DNA from: Candidatus Woesearchaeota archaeon
GTDB taxonomy: Archaea; Nanobdellota; Nanobdellia; SCGC-AAA011-G17; GW2011-AR18
Length of the DNA: 32,000 bases
Assembly: GCA_018302545.1 (NCBI GenBank)
Contig: JAGVZM010000001.1
Coordinates: 169,544-201,543 of the forward strand
Reading direction: 5' to 3'
Each line of letters opens with the position of its first letter. Positions within the stretch are counted from its first letter, which is position 1. Positions 13,391 through 24,352 of the stretch are shown one piece after another. Made by a program: the position numbers and the translations under genes. The notes beneath the pieces were generated by a model. That model saw only the letters and a program-made list of their open reading frames with translations. It did not search any database and had not been told where the DNA came from.

Positions 13391-13675
13391 ATGGATATAA
13401 ACAAAGAATTAATCCTAAAGGTAGCTAAAAATGCAAGATTAGAATTGACAGATCAAGAAATAAAAGAGTTCTTGCCACAACTAAAAGAAGTCTTAAATTC
13501 ATTCTCAGAGTTAAGTAAAATAAATACAGATAAAATAAATCCAAGTTTTCAACCAATAGATATTAAAAACAAATTAAGAGAGGATCAAGAAGAACCTTCT
13601 ATAGACAATAAAGAATTACTAAAAAACACTAAGCATAAAAAAGATAATTATTTCCTAGGACCAAAAGCAATATGA
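13391..13675 (+). CDS. gatC: Asp/Glu-tRNA amidotransferase subunit C
   Basis: 94 aa. VAKNARLELTDQEIKEFLPQLKEVLNSFSEL is a typical GatC segment. It sits upstream of gatA. Confidence 0.85.
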   Translation: MDINKELILKVAKNARLELTDQEIKEFLPQLKEVLNSFSELSKINTDKINPSFQPIDIKNKLREDQEEPSIDNKELLKNTKHKKDNYFLGPKAI

Positions 13676-14088
13676 AAGCACTATCTATGAAACAACCAGT
13701 TCCAGAACTAATTTTACAAGGTAAAAAAACCATAGAATTAAGAACTTGGAAATCTAACTTTAGAGGAGAATTCTATTTACATGCATCTAAAAATGTAATA
13801 CCAAGATTAATGGATGTATTCAAATTTAAAATTGAAGATCTGTCACAAGGAGCAATAGTTGGAAAAGCAACGATTAAAGATATGAAGATATATACAGAAG
13901 AAAAACAATTTCAAAAAGACGCAGACAAACATTTAGTTCCTGGAAAAATGTACAAAAACCCAACCTATGGTTATATATTAGAAGAACCAGTTAGATTAGA
14001 AAAACCCATTCCTTACAAAGGGCAATTAAGCTTTTTTGATGTAAATTTAACACCAACAAAACAATTAAAACTAGGAGAATTTAAATGA
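13672..14088 (+). CDS. ASCH (PUA-like) domain protein
   Basis: MKALSMKQPVPELILQGKKTIELRTW matches the ASCH N-terminal strand pattern. ATGA overlaps occur at both ends, with gatC and gatA. Confidence 0.65.
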   Translation: MKALSMKQPVPELILQGKKTIELRTWKSNFRGEFYLHASKNVIPRLMDVFKFKIEDLSQGAIVGKATIKDMKIYTEEKQFQKDADKHLVPGKMYKNPTYGYILEEPVRLEKPIPYKGQLSFFDVNLTPTKQLKLGEFK

Positions 14089-15491
14089 AGATTCAGGAAT
14101 TCATAAAAAAAGTCCAAGATAAAGAAATAGACGTAGTAGAACATACCCACAAAGTCTTAGAAGAATGTAAAAAAATAAACAAAGAATACCATTATCTAAA
14201 TACAATTTCAGAAGAGTTAGCAATAGAACAAGCAAAAAACGTAAAGAAAAATCCAAAAGGAAAATTAGCAGGTCTTCCAATATCAGTAAAGGATTCTATA
14301 TGTGTTAAAGATATAGAAAGTACAGCAGGTTCTAAAATATTAAAAGGTTATATTCCATTAAAACACGCAACAGCAGTAAAAAAAGCAATAAATGAAGGAG
14401 CAATAGTCATAGGAAAAACAGCTCAAGATGAATTTGGTTTCGGTGGTTTCTCAACTAATGTTGGTTTAAATTTTAAAATTCCTTTAAATCCATTTGATAA
14501 AGGAAGAGCTACTGGAGGTTCTTCAGGAGGCGCAGGAGGTTTAACCCAAAAAGCTAGTTTCCCACACATTGCATTGGGAGAATGTACTGGAGGAAGCATA
14601 GAAAGTCCTGCTAGTTTCTGCGGAGTTTTTGGATTAGTTCCAACTTATGGAAGAGTTTCTAGATATGGCCTAATAGATTATGGAAATTCTCTAGATAAAG
14701 TGGGTCCATTAAGTAAAGAAGCTTATGGTACTGCTTTAATGCTAGAGACAATATCAGGTCATGATCCTAAAGATTCAACATCCCTAAAAGAGGAAGTAGG
14801 AAGTTATACAAATTACTTAACTAAAAAAGTGAAAGGTTTGAAGATAGGAGTAATAAAAGAAGCTTTTAGTGAAGGCACAGACAAATCAGTAAGTAATGTT
14901 GTATGGAGAAGTATTAAAAAACTAGAAGATAATGGATGTATTTACAAAGAAATAACTTTACCGATAACTATGAAATATAGTATCCCTACTTATTATCTAT
15001 TAGCCACAGCAGAAGCTTCAACAAATTTAGCAAAGTATTGTGGAATAAGATATGGTGCACATGAAAAACTAGAAGGCAATTTTGATGAGTATTTCACTAA
15101 AGTAAGAAGTAATAACTTCGGAAAGGAAGCAAAGAGAAGAATAATAATTGGAACATTTTCAAGAATGTCTGGGTTCAGAGATGCTTACTATATCAAAGCT
15201 GCTAAAGTCAGAACTCTGATAATTGAAGAATACAAAAAAGCATTGAAAAATTTTGATGTATTGATAACTCCCACAATGCCAATATTACCTCCTAAATTCG
15301 AAGAATTAAAAAAATTAACACCATTGCAAGATTATATGATGGACATCATGACTGCTGCCCCAAATCTAGCAGGTTTACCCCATTTAAGTATTCCAGTTGG
15401 TTTTGAAAAAAATCTACCAATAGGTATGATGGCAATCTCAGATCATTTACAAGAAGGAAAATTAATCCAAATAGCCAAAGAGTTCTCTTAA
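14085..15491 (+). CDS. gatA: Asp/Glu-tRNA amidotransferase subunit A
   Basis: Amidase signature GGSSGGAGG. KDSICVKDIESTAGSKIL contains the catalytic Lys region. 468 aa. Confidence 0.9.
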   Translation: MKIQEFIKKVQDKEIDVVEHTHKVLEECKKINKEYHYLNTISEELAIEQAKNVKKNPKGKLAGLPISVKDSICVKDIESTAGSKILKGYIPLKHATAVKKAINEGAIVIGKTAQDEFGFGGFSTNVGLNFKIPLNPFDKGRATGGSSGGAGGLTQKASFPHIALGECTGGSIESPASFCGVFGLVPTYGRVSRYGLIDYGNSLDKVGPLSKEAYGTALMLETISGHDPKDSTSLKEEVGSYTNYLTKKVKGLKIGVIKEAFSEGTDKSVSNVVWRSIKKLEDNGCIYKEITLPITMKYSIPTYYLLATAEASTNLAKYCGIRYGAHEKLEGNFDEYFTKVRSNNFGKEAKRRIIIGTFSRMSGFRDAYYIKAAKVRTLIIEEYKKALKNFDVLITPTMPILPPKFEELKKLTPLQDYMMDIMTAAPNLAGLPHLSIPVGFEKNLPIGMMAISDHLQEGKLIQIAKEFS

Positions 15492-15550
15492 AAAATAAGC
15501 AGTTTATTAAAATAAAAAAGAAAAATAGAATTTGAAAGATTTATTATAAT

Positions 15551-15718
15551 TTATTCTTCCTCATCACTACTCTTATCTTCGTCTTCGTCGTCATCATCGT
15601 CATCCATGTCATCGTCATCCATGTCATCGTCTTCTTCCACTTCTACGTCTTCATCATCAGAAGCAACTAATAAAAGTTCCTCATCAAATGTATTTGTTTT
15701 TATCATTGTTTCACTCAT
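15551..15718 (-). CDS. Hyper-acidic mini-protein 1 (55 aa), not in the supplied ORF track
   Basis: My translation is MSETMIKTNTFDEELLLVASDDEDVEVEEDDDMDDDDMDDDDDDEDEDKSSDEEE. ATG at 15718, and GGGGGTGG (15727-15734, minus strand) 8 nt upstream. 32 of 55 residues are D/E. Confidence 0.55.
   Translation of the reverse strand: MSETMIKTNTFDEELLLVASDDEDVEVEEDDDMDDDDMDDDDDDEDEDKSSDEEE
15601..15630. repeat. Perfect 15-bp tandem duplication (2 copies) inside acidic mini-protein 1
   Basis: catccatgtcatcgt occurs at 15601-15615 and again at 15616-15630. It is in frame and encodes a duplicated D/M pentapeptide. Confidence 0.9.
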
Positions 15719-15804
15719 TTTATAATCCACCCCCTGGGTTTAATAAAAAAACCAAAAAACACCTGTTTAAATAATTTACTATATTAAAAACTACCCTTTG
15801 GTAA

Positions 15805-16020
15805 CTAATATTCATTGTCTAAATCCACTCCTTCAGAGTCTCCATCAAAATCAGCATCATCAGCATCATCAGCATCTAAATCAAATTCATCAGAATCAAA
15901 ATCACTTTCCTCAAAATCTTCCTCATCTTCAGGAAGTTTAGCCTTATTCTTTTTTTTAATAGCAAACTCAATTTTAAAAAAGTCTTGCAATTCTAATAAT
16001 TCCACCCACACAATATTCAT
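15805..16020 (-). CDS. Hyper-acidic mini-protein 2 (71 aa)
   Basis: ATG at 16020 with GGGGGTTGG 5 nt upstream; the tracked start at 16029 is TTG. Sequence MNIVWVELLELQDFFKIEFAIKKKNKAKLPEDEEDFEESDFDSDEFDLDADDADDADFDGDSEGVDLDNEY. Confidence 0.6.
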   Translation of the reverse strand: MNIVWVELLELQDFFKIEFAIKKKNKAKLPEDEEDFEESDFDSDEFDLDADDADDADFDGDSEGVDLDNEY

Positions 16021-16100
16021 AGTTACCAACCCCCTAACTAGCCCAATGCTAGTAAAGGGGACTTATAAATTTTTTGGTAATATAAAATAAATAAATAAAA

Positions 16101-16268
16101 CTAGTATTCTTCACTAGAATCTACACCCGATTCATCATTCTCAAAGTCGTCATCTAATTCATCGTCATCTAAATCCAATTCATCCCTATCAAAAAAATCT
16201 CCTTCTAATTCCTCATCATCGTCAGGCAGATCATTAATAGTTAATTGCTTATCCTCTGAAAATTCCAT
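16101..16268 (-). CDS. Hyper-acidic mini-protein 3 (55 aa), paralogue of mini-protein 2
   Basis: ATG at 16268 with AGGAGGTG 4 nt upstream; the tracked start at 16289 is TTG. Sequence MEFSEDKQLTINDLPDDDEELEGDFFDRDELDLDDDELDDDFENDESGVDSSEEY. It shares the LP(D/E)D(D/E)E block and the ...GVD...EY C-terminus with protein 2. Confidence 0.6.
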   Translation of the reverse strand: MEFSEDKQLTINDLPDDDEELEGDFFDRDELDLDDDELDDDFENDESGVDSSEEY

Positions 16269-16324
16269 AACACACCTCCTGAATTTCAAAAATTATCAAA
16301 TAAGAAATTTATATAGTTTTCTAA

Positions 16325-17350
16325 TTAAATAAAAGATTTAGCTTTCCCAGTATTAACAATTAAAATTTTCTTATCTTTAGGTATGATTTTTCTAATTTGT
16401 AACATTAAAGCCAATCCTGCAATACCTGAAGGTTCACAAACAATATTATTATTATCAGCAATTTCCATAGCTTTATCTAAATATTTTTCTTTAATTAGAT
16501 AAACATCAGATTTGGAGCCACAAAATCCAGAACACCTATATAGCCTTATCCACTGTTCATCAAAATGTACAAAAGGTAAATGTGGAGAATATAACTTATC
16601 TGCTTTAGTTCTTGGATTATTAGAAGTAGCACCCATAAAATTACAATTTCTCAAAGTTTTAATATTTCCTTTAAATCTTGGATCATGGTTGATAGATTGA
16701 ATTTCTCTTTTAGCAACATTCAAAACATTTTCATATAGGTTACCTGTTCCAAAAGGAATAAAGCAATAATCTGGAGAGGTATTTATTATTTCATAACTTA
16801 ACCAATCGTAAAATCTAGTAGTGGGATCTAAAGCCTCAGCAGAAGTTATATCAAATCCCTTTTTGTTTTTAGTTAGAAATAAGATATCCTTAGAATTCAA
16901 TTGTTTTCTAGCCAACAAAGTTTGGTAAACTTTACATCCAACATCTTTCAGCTTTTTCAAAACTTCAGAACCTGTATGAAGATCAATCAATACTCTAAGG
17001 TTAGGCAAGTTATATTTTTTTAGTATTAATTGTATTGCAACAGCAGCATTTCCTGAAGAAATAATTGACATTGCAGGTAAAGTACCATTAACTTGTCCAT
17101 ATTTTTTAGCTAATAAGAAATTACGATAAGTGACAACGATCTCCCAAGCCATTCTATCTTTATGAGTTCCTGTTGGATTATGACTTTCATCTTTCAGCCA
17201 AACATTTGAAAATCCTGGAACTTTTATTTTATAGGTTGGAGTAGCAGGAAATTTAGGATCATTAGGTGGAAATTCTGGATTATTAGGATCGTTTTCAGAA
17301 GCAACATGAATAGATTTTAAAATCTGTTCTTCTTTTTTACTAAAAACCAT
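16325..17350 (-). CDS. Pyridoxal-phosphate-dependent enzyme, fold type II (Thr synthase / Cys synthase-like)
   Basis: PLP-lysine motif DESHNPTGTHKDR, SSGNAAVAIQ, and glycine loop IPFGTGNLYENV. 341 aa. Specific activity cannot be assigned. Confidence 0.7.
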   Translation of the reverse strand: MVFSKKEEQILKSIHVASENDPNNPEFPPNDPKFPATPTYKIKVPGFSNVWLKDESHNPTGTHKDRMAWEIVVTYRNFLLAKKYGQVNGTLPAMSIISSGNAAVAIQLILKKYNLPNLRVLIDLHTGSEVLKKLKDVGCKVYQTLLARKQLNSKDILFLTKNKKGFDITSAEALDPTTRFYDWLSYEIINTSPDYCFIPFGTGNLYENVLNVAKREIQSINHDPRFKGNIKTLRNCNFMGATSNNPRTKADKLYSPHLPFVHFDEQWIRLYRCSGFCGSKSDVYLIKEKYLDKAMEIADNNNIVCEPSGIAGLALMLQIRKIIPKDKKILIVNTGKAKSFI

Positions 17351-17506: not shown

Positions 17507-17869
17507 TCAACCAAAATAAGTATCCGAAACTTCTTTTTTCTCTTCTTTAGCTTGTTTATTTTTTTCCTTTTTAATAATCTTCTCAGCTTTCTTAATAGCT
17601 TCAGTTTTTTCTATTTTCCCAAACCTGCTTTCATAATCATTTATAGCTCTATTTAACATAGCCAAAAAAGATTTGGCATGTAGAGGACTCATAACAACGA
17701 TATTATGCGTCAAAAAAATACTTCTATGATCTGCAAAATCATGTAAATGTGTAACACATTTAAAATCTAAAGAAAACTCATTAGGATTAAAATTAATTCC
17801 TGCTTCATTAGAATAAAATTGTTCAGTATCTTTTATTCTAACATTCACCTGTTGATCTTCTTTTGCCAT
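17507..17869 (-). CDS. DUF3467 family protein
   Basis: From the ATG at 17869: MAKEDQQVNVRIKDTEQFYSNEAGINFNPNEFSLDF...MSPLHAKSFLAMLNRAINDYESRFGKI, which matches the DUF3467 pattern. The tracked N-terminal 34 aa run through a tRNA gene, so I trimmed them. Confidence 0.7.
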   Translation of the reverse strand: MAKEDQQVNVRIKDTEQFYSNEAGINFNPNEFSLDFKCVTHLHDFADHRSIFLTHNIVVMSPLHAKSFLAMLNRAINDYESRFGKIEKTEAIKKAEKIIKKEKNKQAKEEKKEVSDTYFG

Positions 17870-17880
17870 TTTATTATTAG

Positions 17881-17985
17881 TGGGCCCGGCAAGATTTGAA
17901 CTTGCGACATCCACCTTGTAAGGGTGGCGTTTGTTAATCCCAAAATCAAGGCTTATGAGATCCATAACCACTAGACCACGGGCCC
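17881..17985 (-). tRNA. tRNA-Val (anticodon UAC) with a 32-nt intron in the D-arm, no encoded CCA
   Basis: Minus-strand parts: GGGCCCG TG GTCT AGTGGTTA TG [GATCTCATAAGCCTTGATTTTGGGATTAACAA] AC G CCACC CTTACAA GGTGG ATGTC GCAAG TTCAAAT CTTGC CGGGCCC A. All four arms form only if the bracketed 32 nt are removed. Confidence 0.75.
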
Positions 17986-18029: not shown

Positions 18030-19157
18030 TTAGAATCCATTTACTAAACCAACATATGCTTTAAATTCAAAATCCCCATCACTTAAATCTCTTTTAAGAT
18101 GAATCGAAGTTTCAAGTGGAGTTTCAGGAATTGAAACATAAATATCTCCAACCACTTTAGGCAAAAATAATCCAGATTTTTTTTCATACTCAAAACCAGG
18201 TCCTAGAGAAAAAAATAATCCATTAAGAGGCCTATAAACAAATCTACTATCTAATAAAGAGACATTTGGGTTATTTCTCCAATCAAAAGCAAGAGCAAAC
18301 CTATTTGTAGATACTTGATCATAAGGAGGCCAAGCATCTAAAATGTGACCAGTAGCAACATCCCTCATCTCAGTATTATTTAAGACCCTAGTTCTAAAAT
18401 CTAAAAATTCTTTTCCATAATTAGAACTATTCATCAAAATCAATTTGCCAAATTGAAGTTTATCATCTAAATCAACTAATGTTTGACTATGGAAAGCAAA
18501 ACCTCTCTGGTTTATATAACTAAAGATACCAATTAAAGTATCCCTATCTAAACCTTGACTACCAAAACTAAAATAAAAATCATTAACGACAGCAGCTACA
18601 AAACCATGCGCATCAAATCTATTTCCATCATTCCAAACATCAAAATCTAAAGTTAGATTAGAATCACTATAAGTAGTTCCAAAAAATCCTCCAAACAAAG
18701 CTATAGAATCTTGAATAATACCTGCTCTAAGAACTAATTGACCTTGCTCACCAAACAAAACACTAACTCTAGGAAAACCCTCTAACATTAAAGTATATCC
18801 CCAATTTTTATTAGGTTTATAATCCACAATGCCTGTTGCTCTAAAAAGACCATTATTAGAAGCACTTTCTAAACCAATTATATCATCCAAAAATTTGCTT
18901 TTAGGACTTCTTAATACAGAACTAAATTCATGAGTATTATCATCAACAAATAATTTTGTTCTATGTTGAAGAGCTAAATGGGTACCATCTAAATTTTTAT
19001 ACTTAACCAAAGAATCTACATTAGTATCACCATTAGATTCAATTAACATATTCCCCAGGAATAAATTTGATTTAGGAACCTCAACCTTACTATCTTCAGA
19101 AGCCTCTCCAAAAAGAGAAGCAGCCAATGCTAAAGGTAAAACAAAACTCATCTTCAA
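18030..19157 (-). CDS. Secreted beta-strand-rich protein with C-terminal aromatic residue (OMP-like features)
   Basis: Signal-like N-terminus MKMSFVLPLALAASLFGEA. Many amphipathic strand-like segments. The C-terminus is FEFKAYVGLVNGF, ending in Phe. Confidence 0.6.
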   Translation of the reverse strand: MKMSFVLPLALAASLFGEASEDSKVEVPKSNLFLGNMLIESNGDTNVDSLVKYKNLDGTHLALQHRTKLFVDDNTHEFSSVLRSPKSKFLDDIIGLESASNNGLFRATGIVDYKPNKNWGYTLMLEGFPRVSVLFGEQGQLVLRAGIIQDSIALFGGFFGTTYSDSNLTLDFDVWNDGNRFDAHGFVAAVVNDFYFSFGSQGLDRDTLIGIFSYINQRGFAFHSQTLVDLDDKLQFGKLILMNSSNYGKEFLDFRTRVLNNTEMRDVATGHILDAWPPYDQVSTNRFALAFDWRNNPNVSLLDSRFVYRPLNGLFFSLGPGFEYEKKSGLFLPKVVGDIYVSIPETPLETSIHLKRDLSDGDFEFKAYVGLVNGF

Positions 19158-19306
19158 TCATCTCCAATTTACCACCTCTTCTATGAAATTACATCTAGAA
19201 AATAATAACCGTTCTAAGTTTAAAGCTTTTTATTAAAATATATAAATAAGTATAAAAGTATAAATCTTTAGAAAAGTTTAAATATATTCCTAAATTAACA
19301 ATTCTT

Positions 19307-20209
19307 ATGAAAAGAAAATTAGTACAACAAGGTGCAGCAACGATGATGATAAGTTTGCCAGCTAAATGGATTAAAGCTAATTCCTTAAATAAAGGTTCAG
19401 AAATAAACTTAGAACAACATAATAATTCTCTAATAATTTCAGGAGACAGAATAAACACAAAAAGTGAAACAGAAATTAAGATATTAACAAATGTAGAGTC
19501 CTCAATAAGAACTTTAATAACCAATACTTACAGAAATGGATTTGACAAAATAAGAGTAAATTTTGAAAATGAACAACAATTCAAAATATTAAAGCATATA
19601 ATAAAATCAAGATTAACCGGTTTTGATATTATAAAAAAAGAGAATAATTATTGTATTGTAGAGAATATTACAGAACCAACTGAAGATCAATTTGAAAACA
19701 TTTTAAGCAAATTATTATTAAATATAGAAGAATTTTTTGAAATAACAAAAAAAAGATTTGAAAATCCAAAAGAGATTTATGATTATGAAGAAACATCAGA
19801 ATTAATACAGAAATATGATAATTTCTGTAGAAGGATAATAATAAAATACAAATATAATAACAAAAAAACAGAATTACTTTGGGCATTTTTAACATTAATA
19901 ATTCATGGACAAAGAGAATTGCATCATCTTAACAAAGTATTAAATGAAAATATCAAAATATCAAAAGAAACAAGAGAGTTGTTAGTAGAATCAGAGAATT
20001 TATTTAAATTAGTAAAAAAAGCATATTTAGAGAAAGATATTAACCTACTATCAAAAATTCATAATTTGGAAAAAGAGATAATGTATAAAAAAGGTTATAG
20101 TCTTTTATCAAAAGTCAAGAATCAAGAGACTAAAATAGTATATCATATAATGGTTGCTTCAAGGGAGTTTTACCAAGCAAATTCTCCTTTATCAGGATTA
20201 ATCATTTAA
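19307..20209 (+). CDS. AbrB/SpoVT-domain plus PhoU-like domain regulator (archaeal phosphate-uptake-regulator type)
   Basis: N-terminus RKLVQQGAATMMISLPAKWIKANSLNKGSEINL is an AbrB-type swapped hairpin. It is followed by about 220 aa of helical PhoU-like repeats. Confidence 0.7.
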   Translation: MKRKLVQQGAATMMISLPAKWIKANSLNKGSEINLEQHNNSLIISGDRINTKSETEIKILTNVESSIRTLITNTYRNGFDKIRVNFENEQQFKILKHIIKSRLTGFDIIKKENNYCIVENITEPTEDQFENILSKLLLNIEEFFEITKKRFENPKEIYDYEETSELIQKYDNFCRRIIIKYKYNNKKTELLWAFLTLIIHGQRELHHLNKVLNENIKISKETRELLVESENLFKLVKKAYLEKDINLLSKIHNLEKEIMYKKGYSLLSKVKNQETKIVYHIMVASREFYQANSPLSGLII

Positions 20210-22248
20210 TCGAAGATTTGTTTTCTATATCTAATTAATCTTCTAGAAAATTCTCTTCCAGGAATTGTTAAATCACAATCTAAAGAATAGTTATTAATAA
20301 CTCTTTCATGAATTGGTAAAAAAGTATAACTAACAATAGCATCTTGTTCATTTCTTGTAACAAATTGGAATGTTGCTGCTTTAATACCTTTACAATTTGG
20401 AAGCTTTAAAGAGGTACCAAAAGAATTACTTCTATTTTGGCTTTGATAATTATCTTTAAATCCCAATTCAGGAATGGCACTTTCATATTTTAGAGAAGGA
20501 TCTACAATTCTAGCATCCAATAATATACTTCCCCTATCTCTTCCAAGATTTTCAACAGTTAGATAAGGCCAAAATCCAAACCTAACTCCAGAAACATCCA
20601 CTGTATGCCTAGGATTACCTACAACTATAGGAATCCTTTTTCTAGCTAAAATTTTACCAGGTTCTAAAAAATTAAATCTTGCTAAAAATTTATCATCTTG
20701 ATTAAAATTATTATCAGGAGCATATAACTCAAGGGCCAAAATATAAACACCATCTCTTAGATCTTCAGGAACATTTATTGAATCAAATCTGTAACCAGCC
20801 CAGCCTTCATCATAAGAGCTCATAGTATCATGTCCATCAGGATGTATAACAAAATTTTTCGAATCATAACCCTCAAAATAAAAACTGCCATCTAAAGGAA
20901 AGGTCATACCTCTAGTCCCGCCAGGAACAGCTTTAAATCTAGAGGTTATATTAAAATTTAATTTTTCGCCAGGTTTAATGCTGCATCCTTCTTCATAATC
21001 AGGATACATCCTACATGCCCCTTTAAGTTTTAAAGGTATCAAGGCAGTTGCATCCAATCCAACTAAATTATTGTTTATTTCTAATTTTCCTGCATCCCAC
21101 TCAGCCCCAACTTCATATTTCTGAATTTGTTCAAGTTTGGGTTTATTTAGATTAGAAAATGTGTGTTCATTAGTAACTAAATCATAAACTGCAGTTCCAA
21201 CAGCACCTAAACATACTAAAGCAAAACTACCAAGAGTTGTAAACACAAAACCAGCACCAATTCTGTCGAACCAAGGAGAGTTCATTAAATATTTATTTTT
21301 TCTAGAATCAAATTCCTGAGATAGTTCTTCCAAACTCTTAATTTTTTTCTTTTCATTTAAAGTAAGACACCTATAAATCAGATTAGAATATCTATGTCCT
21401 CCATCAAAGAAATCAAATCCTAAACTAGTTAGCTTTCTTTTCAAAGATTTTTCGTATTTTCTAAAATCTAATTTCCCATCATCTTTAAGTAAACTCTCTC
21501 CAGTTTCTAAATCAATAGCAATACCACTATCAACATCAAATTCAAAAGGATACTTTCCTTGTAGAGTATAATACATACAAATACCAAGTGCATGTATTTC
21601 AGCAGATTCATCATACTCTCTTTCTATTCCAGTAAATCTACCTAATAGCCTAGGATCTGAAATTAAATGAGCACCCATAGTGGGTAATACATTCGGTTGA
21701 ACTTCATCCCTTCTTTTAGCATTAGCAAAATCAGTAATTCTAACATCAAATTCACCATTTTCCTTAATTAGAATATTAGAAGGATGTAGATCTCTATGAA
21801 AAATACCAACAACTTCATTTAAATATCTAACACCATGAATGACTTTAGAAAAAACTTGTTCAAAACAATCAATACTGATCATTCTTGGACTTTGTATCAT
21901 TTCATCTAGAGACTTACTTTCATAATAAGGTTCGACAGAGACTGTAAGATTCTCATCTTGAAAATAATCTAAAAGAGGCATTAAGTGATGAAGTTCTGCA
22001 TCTTCAATATGACAAAGATGCCTAATATCATTTGCAGTATTGCATCCCCTTCCAACATGTCTTATTGCTCTAGGACTATCTAAATTTAACCTATCAACTT
22101 TTATTATTCTTCTTTGTTTTCCAGCACCCCAATCAGAGAGATATAAAACCCTAGTTCCACCTTGCTTAAATGGTCTAAGATTCCCATATTTTCCTGATAA
22201 AATCTTGCTTAATTTATCTAAATCATCAACAGGAGAAATATCACTCAT
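20206..22248 (-). CDS. Membrane-anchored Ser/Thr protein kinase with large C-terminal extracytoplasmic domain
   Basis: Catalytic loop HRDLHPSNILI. DFA replaces DFG (ITDFANA). HALGICMYYTLQGKYPF resembles subdomain IX. Single TM helix GAGFVFTTLGSFALVCLGAVGTAVY, then about 320 aa of unassigned domain. The start is set at the ATG at 22248, which is preceded by AAGGAGGT. Confidence 0.8.
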   Translation of the reverse strand: MSDISPVDDLDKLSKILSGKYGNLRPFKQGGTRVLYLSDWGAGKQRRIIKVDRLNLDSPRAIRHVGRGCNTANDIRHLCHIEDAELHHLMPLLDYFQDENLTVSVEPYYESKSLDEMIQSPRMISIDCFEQVFSKVIHGVRYLNEVVGIFHRDLHPSNILIKENGEFDVRITDFANAKRRDEVQPNVLPTMGAHLISDPRLLGRFTGIEREYDESAEIHALGICMYYTLQGKYPFEFDVDSGIAIDLETGESLLKDDGKLDFRKYEKSLKRKLTSLGFDFFDGGHRYSNLIYRCLTLNEKKKIKSLEELSQEFDSRKNKYLMNSPWFDRIGAGFVFTTLGSFALVCLGAVGTAVYDLVTNEHTFSNLNKPKLEQIQKYEVGAEWDAGKLEINNNLVGLDATALIPLKLKGACRMYPDYEEGCSIKPGEKLNFNITSRFKAVPGGTRGMTFPLDGSFYFEGYDSKNFVIHPDGHDTMSSYDEGWAGYRFDSINVPEDLRDGVYILALELYAPDNNFNQDDKFLARFNFLEPGKILARKRIPIVVGNPRHTVDVSGVRFGFWPYLTVENLGRDRGSILLDARIVDPSLKYESAIPELGFKDNYQSQNRSNSFGTSLKLPNCKGIKAATFQFVTRNEQDAIVSYTFLPIHERVINNYSLDCDLTIPGREFSRRLIRYRKQIFD

Positions 22249-22387
22249 TTTCAACCTCCTTAACAACCTCTAAAGAAACTTTAACTAAAGTACCAGGTTT
22301 TAGTTCATCTTCTAAAATTTTAGGAATCACCAATATTGCTTGTTTTCCATGTTTTGCAACTTTTTTTGTAATTATAAATTCTTTCAT
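22241..22387 (-). CDS. AbrB/SpoVT-like mini-protein (48 aa), not in the supplied ORF track
   Basis: My translation is MKEFIITKKVAKHGKQAILVIPKILEDELKPGTLVKVSLEVVKEVENE. GKQAILVIPK...L.PG..V is the AbrB/MazE hairpin pattern. Its stop overlaps the kinase ATG (AATGAGTGA). Confidence 0.5.
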   Translation of the reverse strand: MKEFIITKKVAKHGKQAILVIPKILEDELKPGTLVKVSLEVVKEVENE

Positions 22388-22522
22388 TTTATACATCCCT
22401 TATGTAAAAACCATGTAAAAATGAAAAACTTAAAAGATTAACTAAGAAGATAATAGTAATAATAAAAGTATAAACAATTTAATAAAAATCCATATAATAT
22501 AATACAAATAAACAATTATAAG

Positions 22523-23623
22523 ATGAATAAATTAATCATAATAGGAATATTATTATTAATAAGTACATTATTTCTAGTATCATGTACAGAAAGAAGTACA
22601 AATGAATCTCTCAAAATGGGAGCAATTCTTCCATTATCAGGACCTGCAGCAATTCATGGAGAACAACTAAGAAATGGAATGGAATTAGCAAGAGAAGAAT
22701 TATTGAGAGAAGGAATAGATCTAAAAATAATTTACGAAGATTCAGAAGCAAATCCCTCTAAAGGCATAGCAGCATATAACAAACTCAAATCAATAGATAA
22801 TGTAAACATTATTTATTCAGCTTTCTCAAGAGTTACTGTTCCATTAATACCTCTAGCAGACCAAGATAAAACACCAATAATATTCTCCTTAGTAGCCGCC
22901 TCTGGAGTAGCTGATAAAAGCCCATATGCATTTAGATTTTTCTCAACAGATAAACAATTTTCAGAACCTCACTTTGACAAAGAATTAAAAAAACCAAAAT
23001 ACAACAAAATTGCAACATTATATTTAAATGATGAATATGGAAATTCTATAAACAAAGGAGTAATAGAAAGAGCAGAAAGAGAAAACATTCTTGTATTAAT
23101 ACAAGAATCATTTGAAGTTGGATCATCAGATTATAGAACTCAATTGTTAAAGATAAAATCAACAAATCCAGACGCAATAGTAGTAATCTCTGCAGTACCC
23201 TCAGAAGCAATAAACATGATGCAGCAGATAGAAGAATTAAACATAAAAACACAAGTATTTGAAGCAACAACACAACTAAGTTCTAAAAATATCAGAGACT
23301 CACTAGGAAACTCAATTGAAGGATATTATACTTTAACGTATCCCTTTATTTTAGGAAAAACAGGTGATGACTTTAGAAAGAAATACATAGAAAAATACAA
23401 ACAAGACCCACTATTCCAAGCTCCTTTTGGATACGGTACTGTAATAATGATAGGAAAAGCAACAAAAGGCCAAGTAATGTCTGGTTCTGAGATAAGAAAT
23501 AAAATATTAGAATTAAAAACAATAGACACTCCAAATGGTTTAGTTATAATTCAAGAAAATGGAGAAATAAATCCAGAAATACCTGTAGCCAAAGTGGTTA
23601 ATAATCAACTAGTTGAAGTTTAA
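22523..23623 (+). CDS. LivJ-like ABC substrate-binding lipoprotein (orphan)
   Basis: Lipobox-like LFLVSC, then LKMGAILPLSGPAAIHG and DYRTQLLKIKSTNPDAIVV, as in the other paralogues. Confidence 0.8.
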   Translation: MNKLIIIGILLLISTLFLVSCTERSTNESLKMGAILPLSGPAAIHGEQLRNGMELAREELLREGIDLKIIYEDSEANPSKGIAAYNKLKSIDNVNIIYSAFSRVTVPLIPLADQDKTPIIFSLVAASGVADKSPYAFRFFSTDKQFSEPHFDKELKKPKYNKIATLYLNDEYGNSINKGVIERAERENILVLIQESFEVGSSDYRTQLLKIKSTNPDAIVVISAVPSEAINMMQQIEELNIKTQVFEATTQLSSKNIRDSLGNSIEGYYTLTYPFILGKTGDDFRKKYIEKYKQDPLFQAPFGYGTVIMIGKATKGQVMSGSEIRNKILELKTIDTPNGLVIIQENGEINPEIPVAKVVNNQLVEV

Positions 23624-23817
23624 AATAAGGAAACTGATAGAACAATACAACTTGGTCCTAAAGTTTATCCAAAAATTTATAGATTGAGAAAGGAGGAAAT
23701 AATTTCTTGAAAATCTTCCGGAAATTTCTGCTAAGAGTTTATTAAAATCAAAATAAAAATAGTACTATGGAAAATCTTATATATAACAAATATATAATAG
23801 ACTATAGAAAAGATATA

Positions 23818-24045
23818 ATGGCAGAATCAACAACAATTCAATTAGATAAAGAATTATTAGAAGAATTAAAGAAAGTTAAAGAATATCCTAGACAAACCTA
23901 TAATGAATTAATAGAAAAAATGATAAAAATATTTAAAAATGTAAAGAAAAACAATCAGTATGACGAATTTCTACATAGAATACAAAAACAAAAAATGAAA
24001 GAATTGTGGGATAATAAAGAAGATGAGGAATGGGAAAATGTATAA
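23818..24045 (+). CDS. Putative ribbon-helix-helix type antitoxin
   Basis: MAESTTIQLDKELLEELKKVKE resembles an RHH beta-strand followed by a helix. The 3' end overlaps the MazF-like gene. The start could instead be 23767. Confidence 0.5.
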   Translation: MAESTTIQLDKELLEELKKVKEYPRQTYNELIEKMIKIFKNVKKNNQYDEFLHRIQKQKMKELWDNKEDEEWENV

Positions 24046-24352
24046 ACCAGGTGATGTAATCTTGGCTTCAGTTCACTTTACAGATACCTTTGAAATCAAA
24101 AAAAGGCCAGCAGTAATATTATTTGAAGAGTTTGATAATTTTGTGGTTGCAGGAATAACAAGCAATATAAATATGAATGGGATAAAATTGTTGAAAAAAG
24201 AAGGAGTAATAAAAGACAGTATAATAAAATTAAATTACATATTCACAATATCAAAATTAATGATAGAAAAAACCCTGTTTCATCTAAATAGTTCCAAAAA
24301 ACAAGAGATATTCAAAGAATTAAATAAGAAGCTATCAGCATTAAATAATTAA
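24038..24352 (+). CDS. PemK/MazF-like toxin
   Basis: MYKPGDVILASVHFTDTFEIKKRPAVILFE matches the MazF/PemK N-terminal SH3-like motif. The start is set at the ATG at 24038, which overlaps the upstream stop. Confidence 0.65.
   Translation: MYKPGDVILASVHFTDTFEIKKRPAVILFEEFDNFVVAGITSNINMNGIKLLKKEGVIKDSIIKLNYIFTISKLMIEKTLFHLNSSKKQEIFKELNKKLSALNN

Follow-up and report, generated by a model that had tools for sequence, protein, structure and literature searches.

We analyzed a 32-kb window (32,000 nt of contig JAGVZM010000001.1, positions 169,544 to 201,543; coordinates below are those of the window) from a metagenome-assembled genome of Candidatus Woesearchaeota (DPANN archaea). Just beyond gatA it carries three hyper-acidic open reading frames (ORFs) in tandem, here called P1, P2 and P3, which are very likely real, selected genes of a clade-specific family. 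An acidic gene is conserved convergent to gatA in a subclade of Woesearchaeota/Woesearchaeales, and the trio is a lineage-specific local triplication of this otherwise single-copy family gene. No annotation exists for the family, and standard homology tools do not detect it. Small hyper-acidic disordered binding proteins are a kind known from other domains of life; the architecture and lineage found here are new. The genomes of DPANN archaea are small and hold many unannotated genes, and very short low-complexity proteins are often missed or dismissed. Where sequence searches fail, synteny, architecture and motif statistics recovered a conserved, selected family.

Three acidic genes beyond gatA

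The three ORFs and their Shine-Dalgarno (SD) sequences are as follows (aa, amino acids).

15551-15718, minus strand: P1, 55 aa, SD-preceded ATG, divergent family member
15805-16020, minus strand: P2, 71 aa, SD-preceded ATG, full-architecture family member
16101-16268, minus strand: P3, 55 aa, SD-preceded ATG, acidic tail and C-terminal ESGVDSSEEY
15727-15734, minus strand: P1 SD GGGGGTGG, 8 nt before the ATG
16026-16034, minus strand: P2 SD GGGGGTTGG, 5 nt before the ATG
16273-16280, minus strand: P3 SD AGGAGGTG, 4 nt before the ATG

P1, P2 and P3 are encoded on the strand opposite to gatA, 60–800 nt past its stop codon. Their Asp plus Glu contents are 58, 39 and 51%, respectively (80, 59 and 60% within the tails), and their net charges are -30, -22 and -26. 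Among the ATG-started ORFs of at least 30 aa in the window, they alone reach 30% Asp plus Glu. The initial annotation of this DNA had described three very acidic minus-strand ORFs, each with an SD 4–8 nt before its ATG, and all of these are present in the sequence. It had also placed a TATA-like stretch upstream of each ORF. AT-rich, TATA-like elements are indeed found upstream of all three, at ~47–66 nt from the acidic ORFs; those of P2 and P3 match the transcription factor B recognition element (BRE)/TATA consensus common to the orthologues, and the match is weaker for P1.

A GG[AG]GG site was found in 3 of the 33 other window genes (Fisher p = 0.003). In most window genes the ATG directly follows a TATA-like element and there is no SD, which suggests that these genes have leaderless mRNAs. 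P1–P3 are three separately SD-led genes, each with its own predicted promoter. A strong ribosome-binding site where most genes of the lineage lack one, together with the conserved promoter and the C-terminal aromatic motif described below, suggests an abundant protein with a specific partner.

P3 and P2 correspond to NCBI entries J4216_01215 and J4216_01210; the exact P1 sequence was absent from the protein collection searched. Independent gene callers also predicted the 55-, 71- and 55-aa ORFs on four metagenome contigs, and P1 was called on ENA and Logan contigs. The four contigs come from the same strain and are identical over the region, and thus carry no information on population variation.

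A family defined by synteny with gatA

Relatives were found by anchoring on GatA, and the loci were split at 72% GatA identity. Where GatA was at least 72% identical, 17 of the 18 assessable loci had exactly one hyper-acidic ORF (67–94 aa), located 0–2.6 kb beyond gatA and always on the opposite strand. Below 72%, acidic ORFs of 37–49 aa were seen at 4 of the 48 loci. Presence differed sharply between the two identity classes (Fisher p = 4e-11, for loci that are not phylogenetically independent). The copy number is one at the other loci and three in this window. On the contig carrying P0009 (GatA 80% identical) a 114-aa gene occupies the expected position. The initial annotation had proposed a search of related genomes for homologues, and there the sense frame is conserved at the same position in the 17 of 18 loci named above. 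Whole-sequence comparison of P2 with most full-length members gave z values of 4.3–7.0.

Coding potential and selection

The sense ORF, with its start codon, is intact in 18 of 18 family members. A GG[AG]GG site stands 4–10 nt before the start codon in 16 of them, vs. none of 56 ORFs of at least 150 aa at the related loci. Most orthologues, as well as P2 and P3, also have a BRE/TATA element of the form (C)CAAAAAA-TATATAAA 47–66 nt upstream, with some exceptions. The ratio of nonsynonymous to synonymous substitution rates (dN/dS, Nei-Gojobori method) was 0.29–0.36 in four orthologous pairs, vs. 0.09–0.14 for gatA in the same pairs. Between P2 and P3, the comparison put forward in the initial annotation, it was 0.18 with dS saturated. 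Between L092 and L097 there are five substitutions, all of them synonymous, and a single in-frame codon indel.

Every tandem repeat in the region has a period divisible by 3. The P1 tail contains a perfect in-frame 15-nt repeat (2.5 copies, 15594-15631) encoding MDDDD, and the P2 tail a perfect in-frame 9-nt repeat (three copies, 15850-15876) encoding DAD. Such in-frame tandem repeats indicate recent slippage, so the length of the tails may vary.

The initial annotation had allowed that a serine-rich plus-strand frame might be the conserved one. The share of the gene covered by antisense ORFs ran from 7% (P3) to 100%, and neither their frame nor their start was consistent; the serine-rich plus-strand ORF is a by-product of runs of GAN codons. 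The earlier view that these are genes for binding proteins and not chance ORFs is borne out as far as the genes are concerned: the conserved frame, the SD and the dN/dS values point to genuine protein genes.

Relationship among the three copies

P2 and P3 are true paralogues beyond their shared composition, as the initial annotation had proposed. They share 21 identities over 43 aligned columns in a local alignment and 27 of 55 aligned pairs in a MAFFT alignment, with z = 8.2 for the whole proteins and 6.9 for the tails alone (0 of 5000 composition-preserving shuffles were as good). At the DNA level they are 73% identical over an 80-nt stretch. Composition-adjusted BLASTP alone left the P2–P3 relation undetected (E = 4.8). 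The similarity of P1 to P2 or P3 was not significant (z about 1.8). The N-terminus of P1 resembles that of its closest orthologue, L085 (xNxFDxxLxxxA, z = 5.0), and its whole sequence gave z values of 3.4–4.7 against several orthologues. P1 is a divergent family member that has lost the C-terminal motif.

The three proteins differ in their parts. In P2, a hydrophobic/amphipathic N-terminal segment (residues 2-21) is followed by a KKKNKAK patch, the acidic tail and, at the C-terminus, SEGVDLDNEY. P3 is missing the hydrophobic N-terminal segment and has kept the tail and the C-terminal motif. P1 consists of the N-terminal TNTFDEELLLVA segment and a tail of 80% Asp/Glu, the aromatic motif being lost. 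The proteins accordingly end in NEY (P2), EEY (P3) and EEE (P1). An AlphaFold2 model of P2 showed a helix at residues 3-25 and disorder elsewhere, at low confidence (predicted local distance difference test score, pLDDT, of 58.6), which fits a largely disordered protein.

Family architecture and the C-terminal motif

The ancestral plan consists of a hydrophobic N-terminal segment, a Lys/His patch, an Asp/Glu tail and a C-terminal motif, G-[V/I/F]-[D/E]-x(1-8)-(G-G)-x-[Y/W]-(D/E)?. The N-terminal segment has ~20–30 residues and is rich in hydrophobic ones; it often carries a Trp at around position 5-9 and ends in Phi-x-[IL]-A (Phi, hydrophobic). The basic patch takes forms such as KKKNKAK, KHKHKH and RKW. 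In the ancestral plan the tail has 35–50 residues and is interrupted by Phe, Leu, Val or Met. Across members it spans 26–50 residues, of which 55–80% are acidic and 7–22% are Phe, Ile, Leu, Met, Val, Trp or Tyr. With a mass of ~6–9 kDa and a net charge of -16 to -33, the product is a polyanion. Within the window, P2 has all four elements, P3 has the plan without the N-terminal segment, and P1 has it without the C-terminal motif.

Three C-terminal features were tested against 20000 shuffles of the tails.

W/Y in the last two positions: observed in 11 of 17 members, expected 0.76
G[VIF][DE] in the last 16 residues: observed in 11 of 17 members, expected 0.71
Gly in the last 12 positions, summed over members: observed 39, expected 15.8

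Each was matched in 0 of 20000 shuffles, and the C-terminal features are therefore not compositional. The initial annotation had read the Phe/Leu interspersed among acidic residues and the conserved terminal Tyr as signs of a binding function; the excess of terminal Tyr/Trp and of G[VIF][DE] over the shuffled tails lends support to that reading at the sequence level.

Some known motifs were tried on the family and rejected. A PCNA-interacting peptide (PIP) box in the N-terminal segment was inconsistent across members. For an HbYX (hydrophobic, Tyr, any residue) C-terminus, an aromatic residue was penultimate in only three members. By inspection, the spacing of an EF-hand (DxDxDG) did not fit in the members checked.

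Database searches

A word-seeded phmmer search with P3 returned P3 itself only. An exhaustive hmmsearch of 1.84 billion representative proteins with a P2+P3 profile returned P2 and P3 only, and a search with an 11-member profile returned only members among the best 8000 candidates listed. Sequence searches of Pfam, NCBIfam, PHROGs, PADLOC and PDB gave nothing significant (PHROGs and PADLOC each matched 0 of 16 family members). There was no match in IMG/VR (single-protein scan), in GenBank phages or in PLSDB plasmids. The only PDB match was 6zfb_D (E = 2.7), which is compositional.

Possible function and alternative explanations

The best explanation of these results, which we hold tentatively, is that selected, triplicated genes encode a polyanionic, disordered binder that docks via its C-terminal aromatic residue. 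The mechanism that we attach to it is drawn by analogy, with the SSB and T7 gp2.5 tails and DSS1/CSNAP as the closest parallels: an electrostatic decoy or chaperone, made in large amounts, whose partner is basic. This is possible but on the doubtful side. The disordered tail would bind a basic, likely nucleic-acid-binding, surface electrostatically, in the role of a decoy, mimic or chaperone. Docking of the C-terminal aromatic residue and its free carboxylate into a pocket might provide specificity, and the N-terminal segment might serve as a second anchor or in self-association. P1 and P3, as partial paralogues which split the ancestral elements between them, could compete with or modulate P2. 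Among the roles suggested in the initial annotation, a decoy for basic proteins and a C-terminal recognition motif appear the most plausible by comparison with known proteins.

Several observations weigh against this explanation. When segments were shuffled separately, the mean family z fell to 0.9 for N-terminal segments and 1.7 for tails, with only sub-groups still significant (P2–P3 6.9, L085–L086 9.4, L089–L099 9.8). As similarity is weak after separate shuffling, family membership and orthology rest largely on position, orientation, architecture and motif. The C-terminal motif is missing in 6 of 17 members, P1 included. The changes between L092 and L097 are synonymous in the antisense serine frame as well, and this comparison cannot separate the two frames because their third positions coincide. 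The immediate neighbours vary among genomes (AP_endonuc_2, PHP, nitroreductase, a kinase, or none), so the context reveals neither an operon partner nor a functional clue. Finally, cation buffering or another purely physicochemical role would explain the composition too.

The latter possibility, that the protein is a buffer or store of divalent cations (Mg2+/Ca2+) or a general polyanionic solubiliser with its function in bulk charge, agrees with the composition of the tails and with the net charges given above. It also agrees with tail sequences that drift freely and grow by in-frame slippage, and with D-x-D-G-V-D-x-D stretches that by inspection loosely resemble acidic calcium-binding loops. 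However, bulk charge accounts for neither the conserved aromatic residue at the terminus nor the GVD element, the basic patch or the hydrophobic segment at the N-terminus, and the motif does not fit the DxDxDG/EF-hand spacing noted above; we regard this role as improbable. Somewhat better placed, though still unlikely, is an architectural "glue" subunit of a multiprotein complex, as in DSS1/Sem1 or CSNAP, whose acidic-aromatic motifs wrap structured subunits. Size, acidity and disorder are alike, conserved aromatics are flanked by acidic residues, and single-copy vertical inheritance under purifying selection would be expected of a housekeeping subunit. On the other side, Pfam DSS1_SEM1 was matched by none of the members at E up to 1, we know of no PCI-type partner complexes in DPANN archaea, and an amino-acid identity of 47–71% where GatA has 72–85% is fast evolution for a core subunit. 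A carrier or tag of the LysW or Pup type, its C-terminus being ligated to a metabolite or protein, would likewise be small and acidic, and the conserved Gly-Gly plus aromatic C-terminus and the several members that end in Glu (GGYE, GVDTEE, GVESE, GVDEGE, YEPE) could be read in this way. Yet P1–P3 contain no Cys, hence no N-terminal CxxC...CxxC and no Zn-ribbon, and they have neither the EDWGE terminus of LysW nor the GG[QE] terminus of Pup/UBact. The last residue varies among members (Y, W, D, E or S), the window has no ATP-grasp, PafA-like or Dop-like ligase gene, and Pfam and profile searches gave no match to any LysW or Pup family. This makes a carrier or tag extremely unlikely.

Two further explanations concern the origin of the ORFs. 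The initial annotation had named an anti-restriction DNA mimic, which here would mean an anti-defence protein of the Ocr/ArdA/Acr type on a mobile element. The proteins are small, very acidic and tandemly multiplied in this genome, and they adjoin an apparently inserted PALP gene and a tRNA-Gly gene. The same chromosomal position by gatCAB across genomes whose GatA proteins are 65–82% identical argues for vertical inheritance, however. None of 80 other PALP loci has such an ORF, no integrase or other mobile-element gene is adjacent, and the phage, plasmid and defence collections searched (PHROGs, PADLOC, IMG/VR, GenBank phages, PLSDB) gave no match; we therefore find this suggestion unsupported and hardly credible. 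The ORFs might also be untranslated by-products of GA-rich low-complexity DNA, or the antisense strand might be the functional one. Low-complexity codon runs keep several frames open, an antisense ORF of 91 aa covers 95% of P2, and standard searches find no homologues. Against this, the sense frame keeps its start codon, strong SD, promoter, stop codon and C-terminal motif throughout the 18 members, the antisense ORFs are inconsistent (7–100% cover, with 7% for P3), dN/dS is ~0.3, and indels and repeats are in frame. It is very improbable that the ORFs are untranslated.

Predicted transcription and translation signals

Further signals around the three genes are listed below.

16308-16316, minus strand: P3 TATA box CTATATAAA, aligned with the orthologue CAAAAAATATATAAA element; predicted promoter
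16062-16077, minus strand: P2 BRE/TATA CCAAAAAATTTATAAG, aligned with orthologue promoters; predicted promoter
15765-15790, minus strand: P1 AT-rich stretch with candidate TATA elements TTTTTAATATAG and AAATTATTTAAAC, read from the sequence
16079-16100, minus strand: oligo-T tract TTTTATTTATTTATTTTATATT after the P3 stop codon; likely archaeal terminator
15506-15550, minus strand: T-rich region common to the convergent 3' ends of P1 and gatA; likely terminator for both
16030-16060, minus strand: possible P2 leader hairpin, CCCCUU pairing with AGGGGG of the SD; minimum free energy -18.4 kcal/mol, z = -2.5

The P3 TATA box is preceded by an A-rich, BRE-like stretch and lies 9 nt downstream of the PALP stop codon. 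The P1 stretch at 15765-15790 also contains a T5 run after the P2 stop codon. The P2 leader hairpin is possibly relevant only in read-through transcripts from P3, depending on the transcription start site; in such RNA it could silence P2 translation, or it could form part of the P3 terminator.

In five orthologues (L085, L087, L089, L090 and L099) an invariant palindrome or hairpin, (A)UUCAUC-N4-GAUGA(A/G), adjoins the SD on its 5' side, ~22 nt downstream of the TATA box. Its tetraloop differs between copies, and each copy folds at -5 to -6 kcal/mol (approximate positions, minus strand: L085:7670-7690, L087:4675-4695, L089:2305-2325, L090:4950-4970, L099:5455-5475). It may act as a hairpin at the 5' end of the mRNA, or as an operator to which a dimeric repressor binds. 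The palindrome is absent from P1–P3; P3 retains the left flank AAATTCA only, fused to the SD.

Gene order around the trio

The window is AT-rich (24–36% GC). By Pfam annotation, the plus strand before the trio carries gatC, an ASCH-domain gene and gatA (ending at 15491), and the minus strand, convergent to gatA, carries P1, P2, P3, PALP, tRNA-Gly(GCC) and a DUF3467 gene. The ASCH-domain gene (13672-14088, plus strand) stands between gatC and gatA with overlapping stop/start codons. The gatC-ASCH-gatA order is seen in most loci of the 72–82% GatA clade that extend upstream of gatA, which suggests a conserved operon.

The gene adjoining P3 is as follows.

16325-17350, minus strand: pyridoxal phosphate (PLP)-dependent enzyme of the PALP family (Pfam; NCBI name "PLP-dependent lyase/thiolase")

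PALP homologues at 65–75% amino-acid identity were found in 80 genomes from many DPANN archaeal and candidate phyla radiation (CPR)/Patescibacteria lineages. The GC content of these loci runs from 26% to 55%, and they have no neighbouring gene in common. This is an unusually high cross-domain conservation for a stand-alone gene. In the present genome, PALP appears to have been inserted between the tRNA-Gly gene and the acidic ones. We rejected a functional link of PALP with the trio, as the 80 PALP-anchored loci showed no acidic ORF (0 of 80) and no shared synteny.

The best-preserved context is that of L168, with gatC-ASCH-gatA, AP_endonuc_2, the acidic gene, DUF3467 and corA-gatB. Compared with L168, our window has gained PALP between tRNA-Gly and the acidic genes, and has three acidic genes rather than one. 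It also has ~6.5 kb of extra genes between DUF3467 and corA (18030-24352), whereas in L168 corA-gatB directly follows DUF3467. The extra genes encode a 375-aa hypothetical protein, a 300-aa MazE-like-domain protein, a 686-aa Ser/Thr kinase, a periplasmic-binding protein and a DUF7557/PemK toxin-antitoxin pair. This block may be an insertion.

A tRNA-like gene of ~106 nt at 17880-17985 (minus strand) has perfect acceptor arms (GGGCCCG...CGGGCCC) and apparent intron(s). It was missed by ARAGORN with default settings and by Rfam at the gathering threshold; ARAGORN in intron mode called it tRNA-Pro(GGG) with an odd structure. The gene overlaps the ORF call of 152–154 aa for DUF3467, whose true start is probably the ATG at 17869, giving a product of 120 aa. 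A literature search for DUF3467 found only one paper that mentions it, on an unrelated topic, and an AlphaFold2 model of this neighbour from its single sequence was unusable (pLDDT 47).

Comparison with known systems

The phage and plasmid anti-restriction proteins Ocr and ArdA and the acidic anti-CRISPRs are folded, with charges that imitate B-DNA, and are encoded on mobile elements. They resemble the present family in small size and strong negative charge, whereas the family is predicted to be disordered and is chromosomal and syntenic. The delta subunit of RNA polymerase (RpoE of Firmicutes) has an acidic C-terminal domain that, like sigma-70 region 1.1, is polyanionic and disordered and mimics nucleic acid on an enzyme that binds nucleic acids. 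Delta has a folded N-terminal domain, and the 6zfb_D match to it was not significant (E = 2.7). In FYDLN_acid (PF09538), a bacterial family of unknown function, a long stretch of ~50% Asp/Glu comes after a short conserved motif at the N-terminus. Only one of 16 members gave a sub-threshold match to it (E = 0.16), and the members here are archaeal, lack the [KR]FYDLN motif and the CXXC pairs, and have the C-terminal aromatic motif.

DSS1/Sem1 and CSNAP are highly acidic, disordered proteins of 57–90 aa in which aromatics flanked by Asp/Glu are binding motifs, with one helix-prone region (PMC8442969). The family here is alike in small size, acidity, disorder, conserved acidic-flanked aromatics and a single helical region. 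It differs in that none of 16 members matched Pfam PF05160 (E up to 1), and in that the helix is C-terminal in DSS1 and N-terminal here, where the aromatic residue stands at the extreme C-terminus. DSS1 and CSNAP are also eukaryotic and occur in PCI complexes, whereas the present host is archaeal. DSS1 has been described as a DNA mimic towards RPA and BRCA2 as well.

The tails of bacterial SSB (...DDDIPF) and phage T7 gp2.5 offer a further parallel. Their terminal Phe and carboxylate dock in partner pockets, and the tail competes with single-stranded DNA for the oligonucleotide/oligosaccharide-binding (OB) fold. Like the tails of SSB and of phage T7 gp2.5/gp4, the proteins described here have a polyacidic disordered stretch with a terminal aromatic residue. 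The residue is Phe there and Tyr or Trp here, and those tails belong to OB-fold proteins, whereas here the tail is nearly the whole protein. The family might be an archaeal equivalent, in the form of a separate protein, of the SSB/gp2.5 tail or DSS1, that is, a dedicated, highly expressed nucleic-acid mimic which regulates a core DNA- or RNA-binding machine via its C-terminal Tyr/Trp, with P2 as the effector and P1 and P3 as tuning half-molecules; we mention this specific form as a long shot. Such a machine may be histone, Alba, RPA/SSB, RNA polymerase or the neighbouring tRNA-dependent transamidosome. If the nucleic-acid-mimic reading is true, no such regulator would have been described in DPANN archaea before. 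With a nucleic-acid-binding machine as partner, the family would provide a simple archaeal model of regulation by polyanionic disordered proteins; with a partner of another kind, it would still be a useful test case for the annotation of hyper-acidic microproteins.

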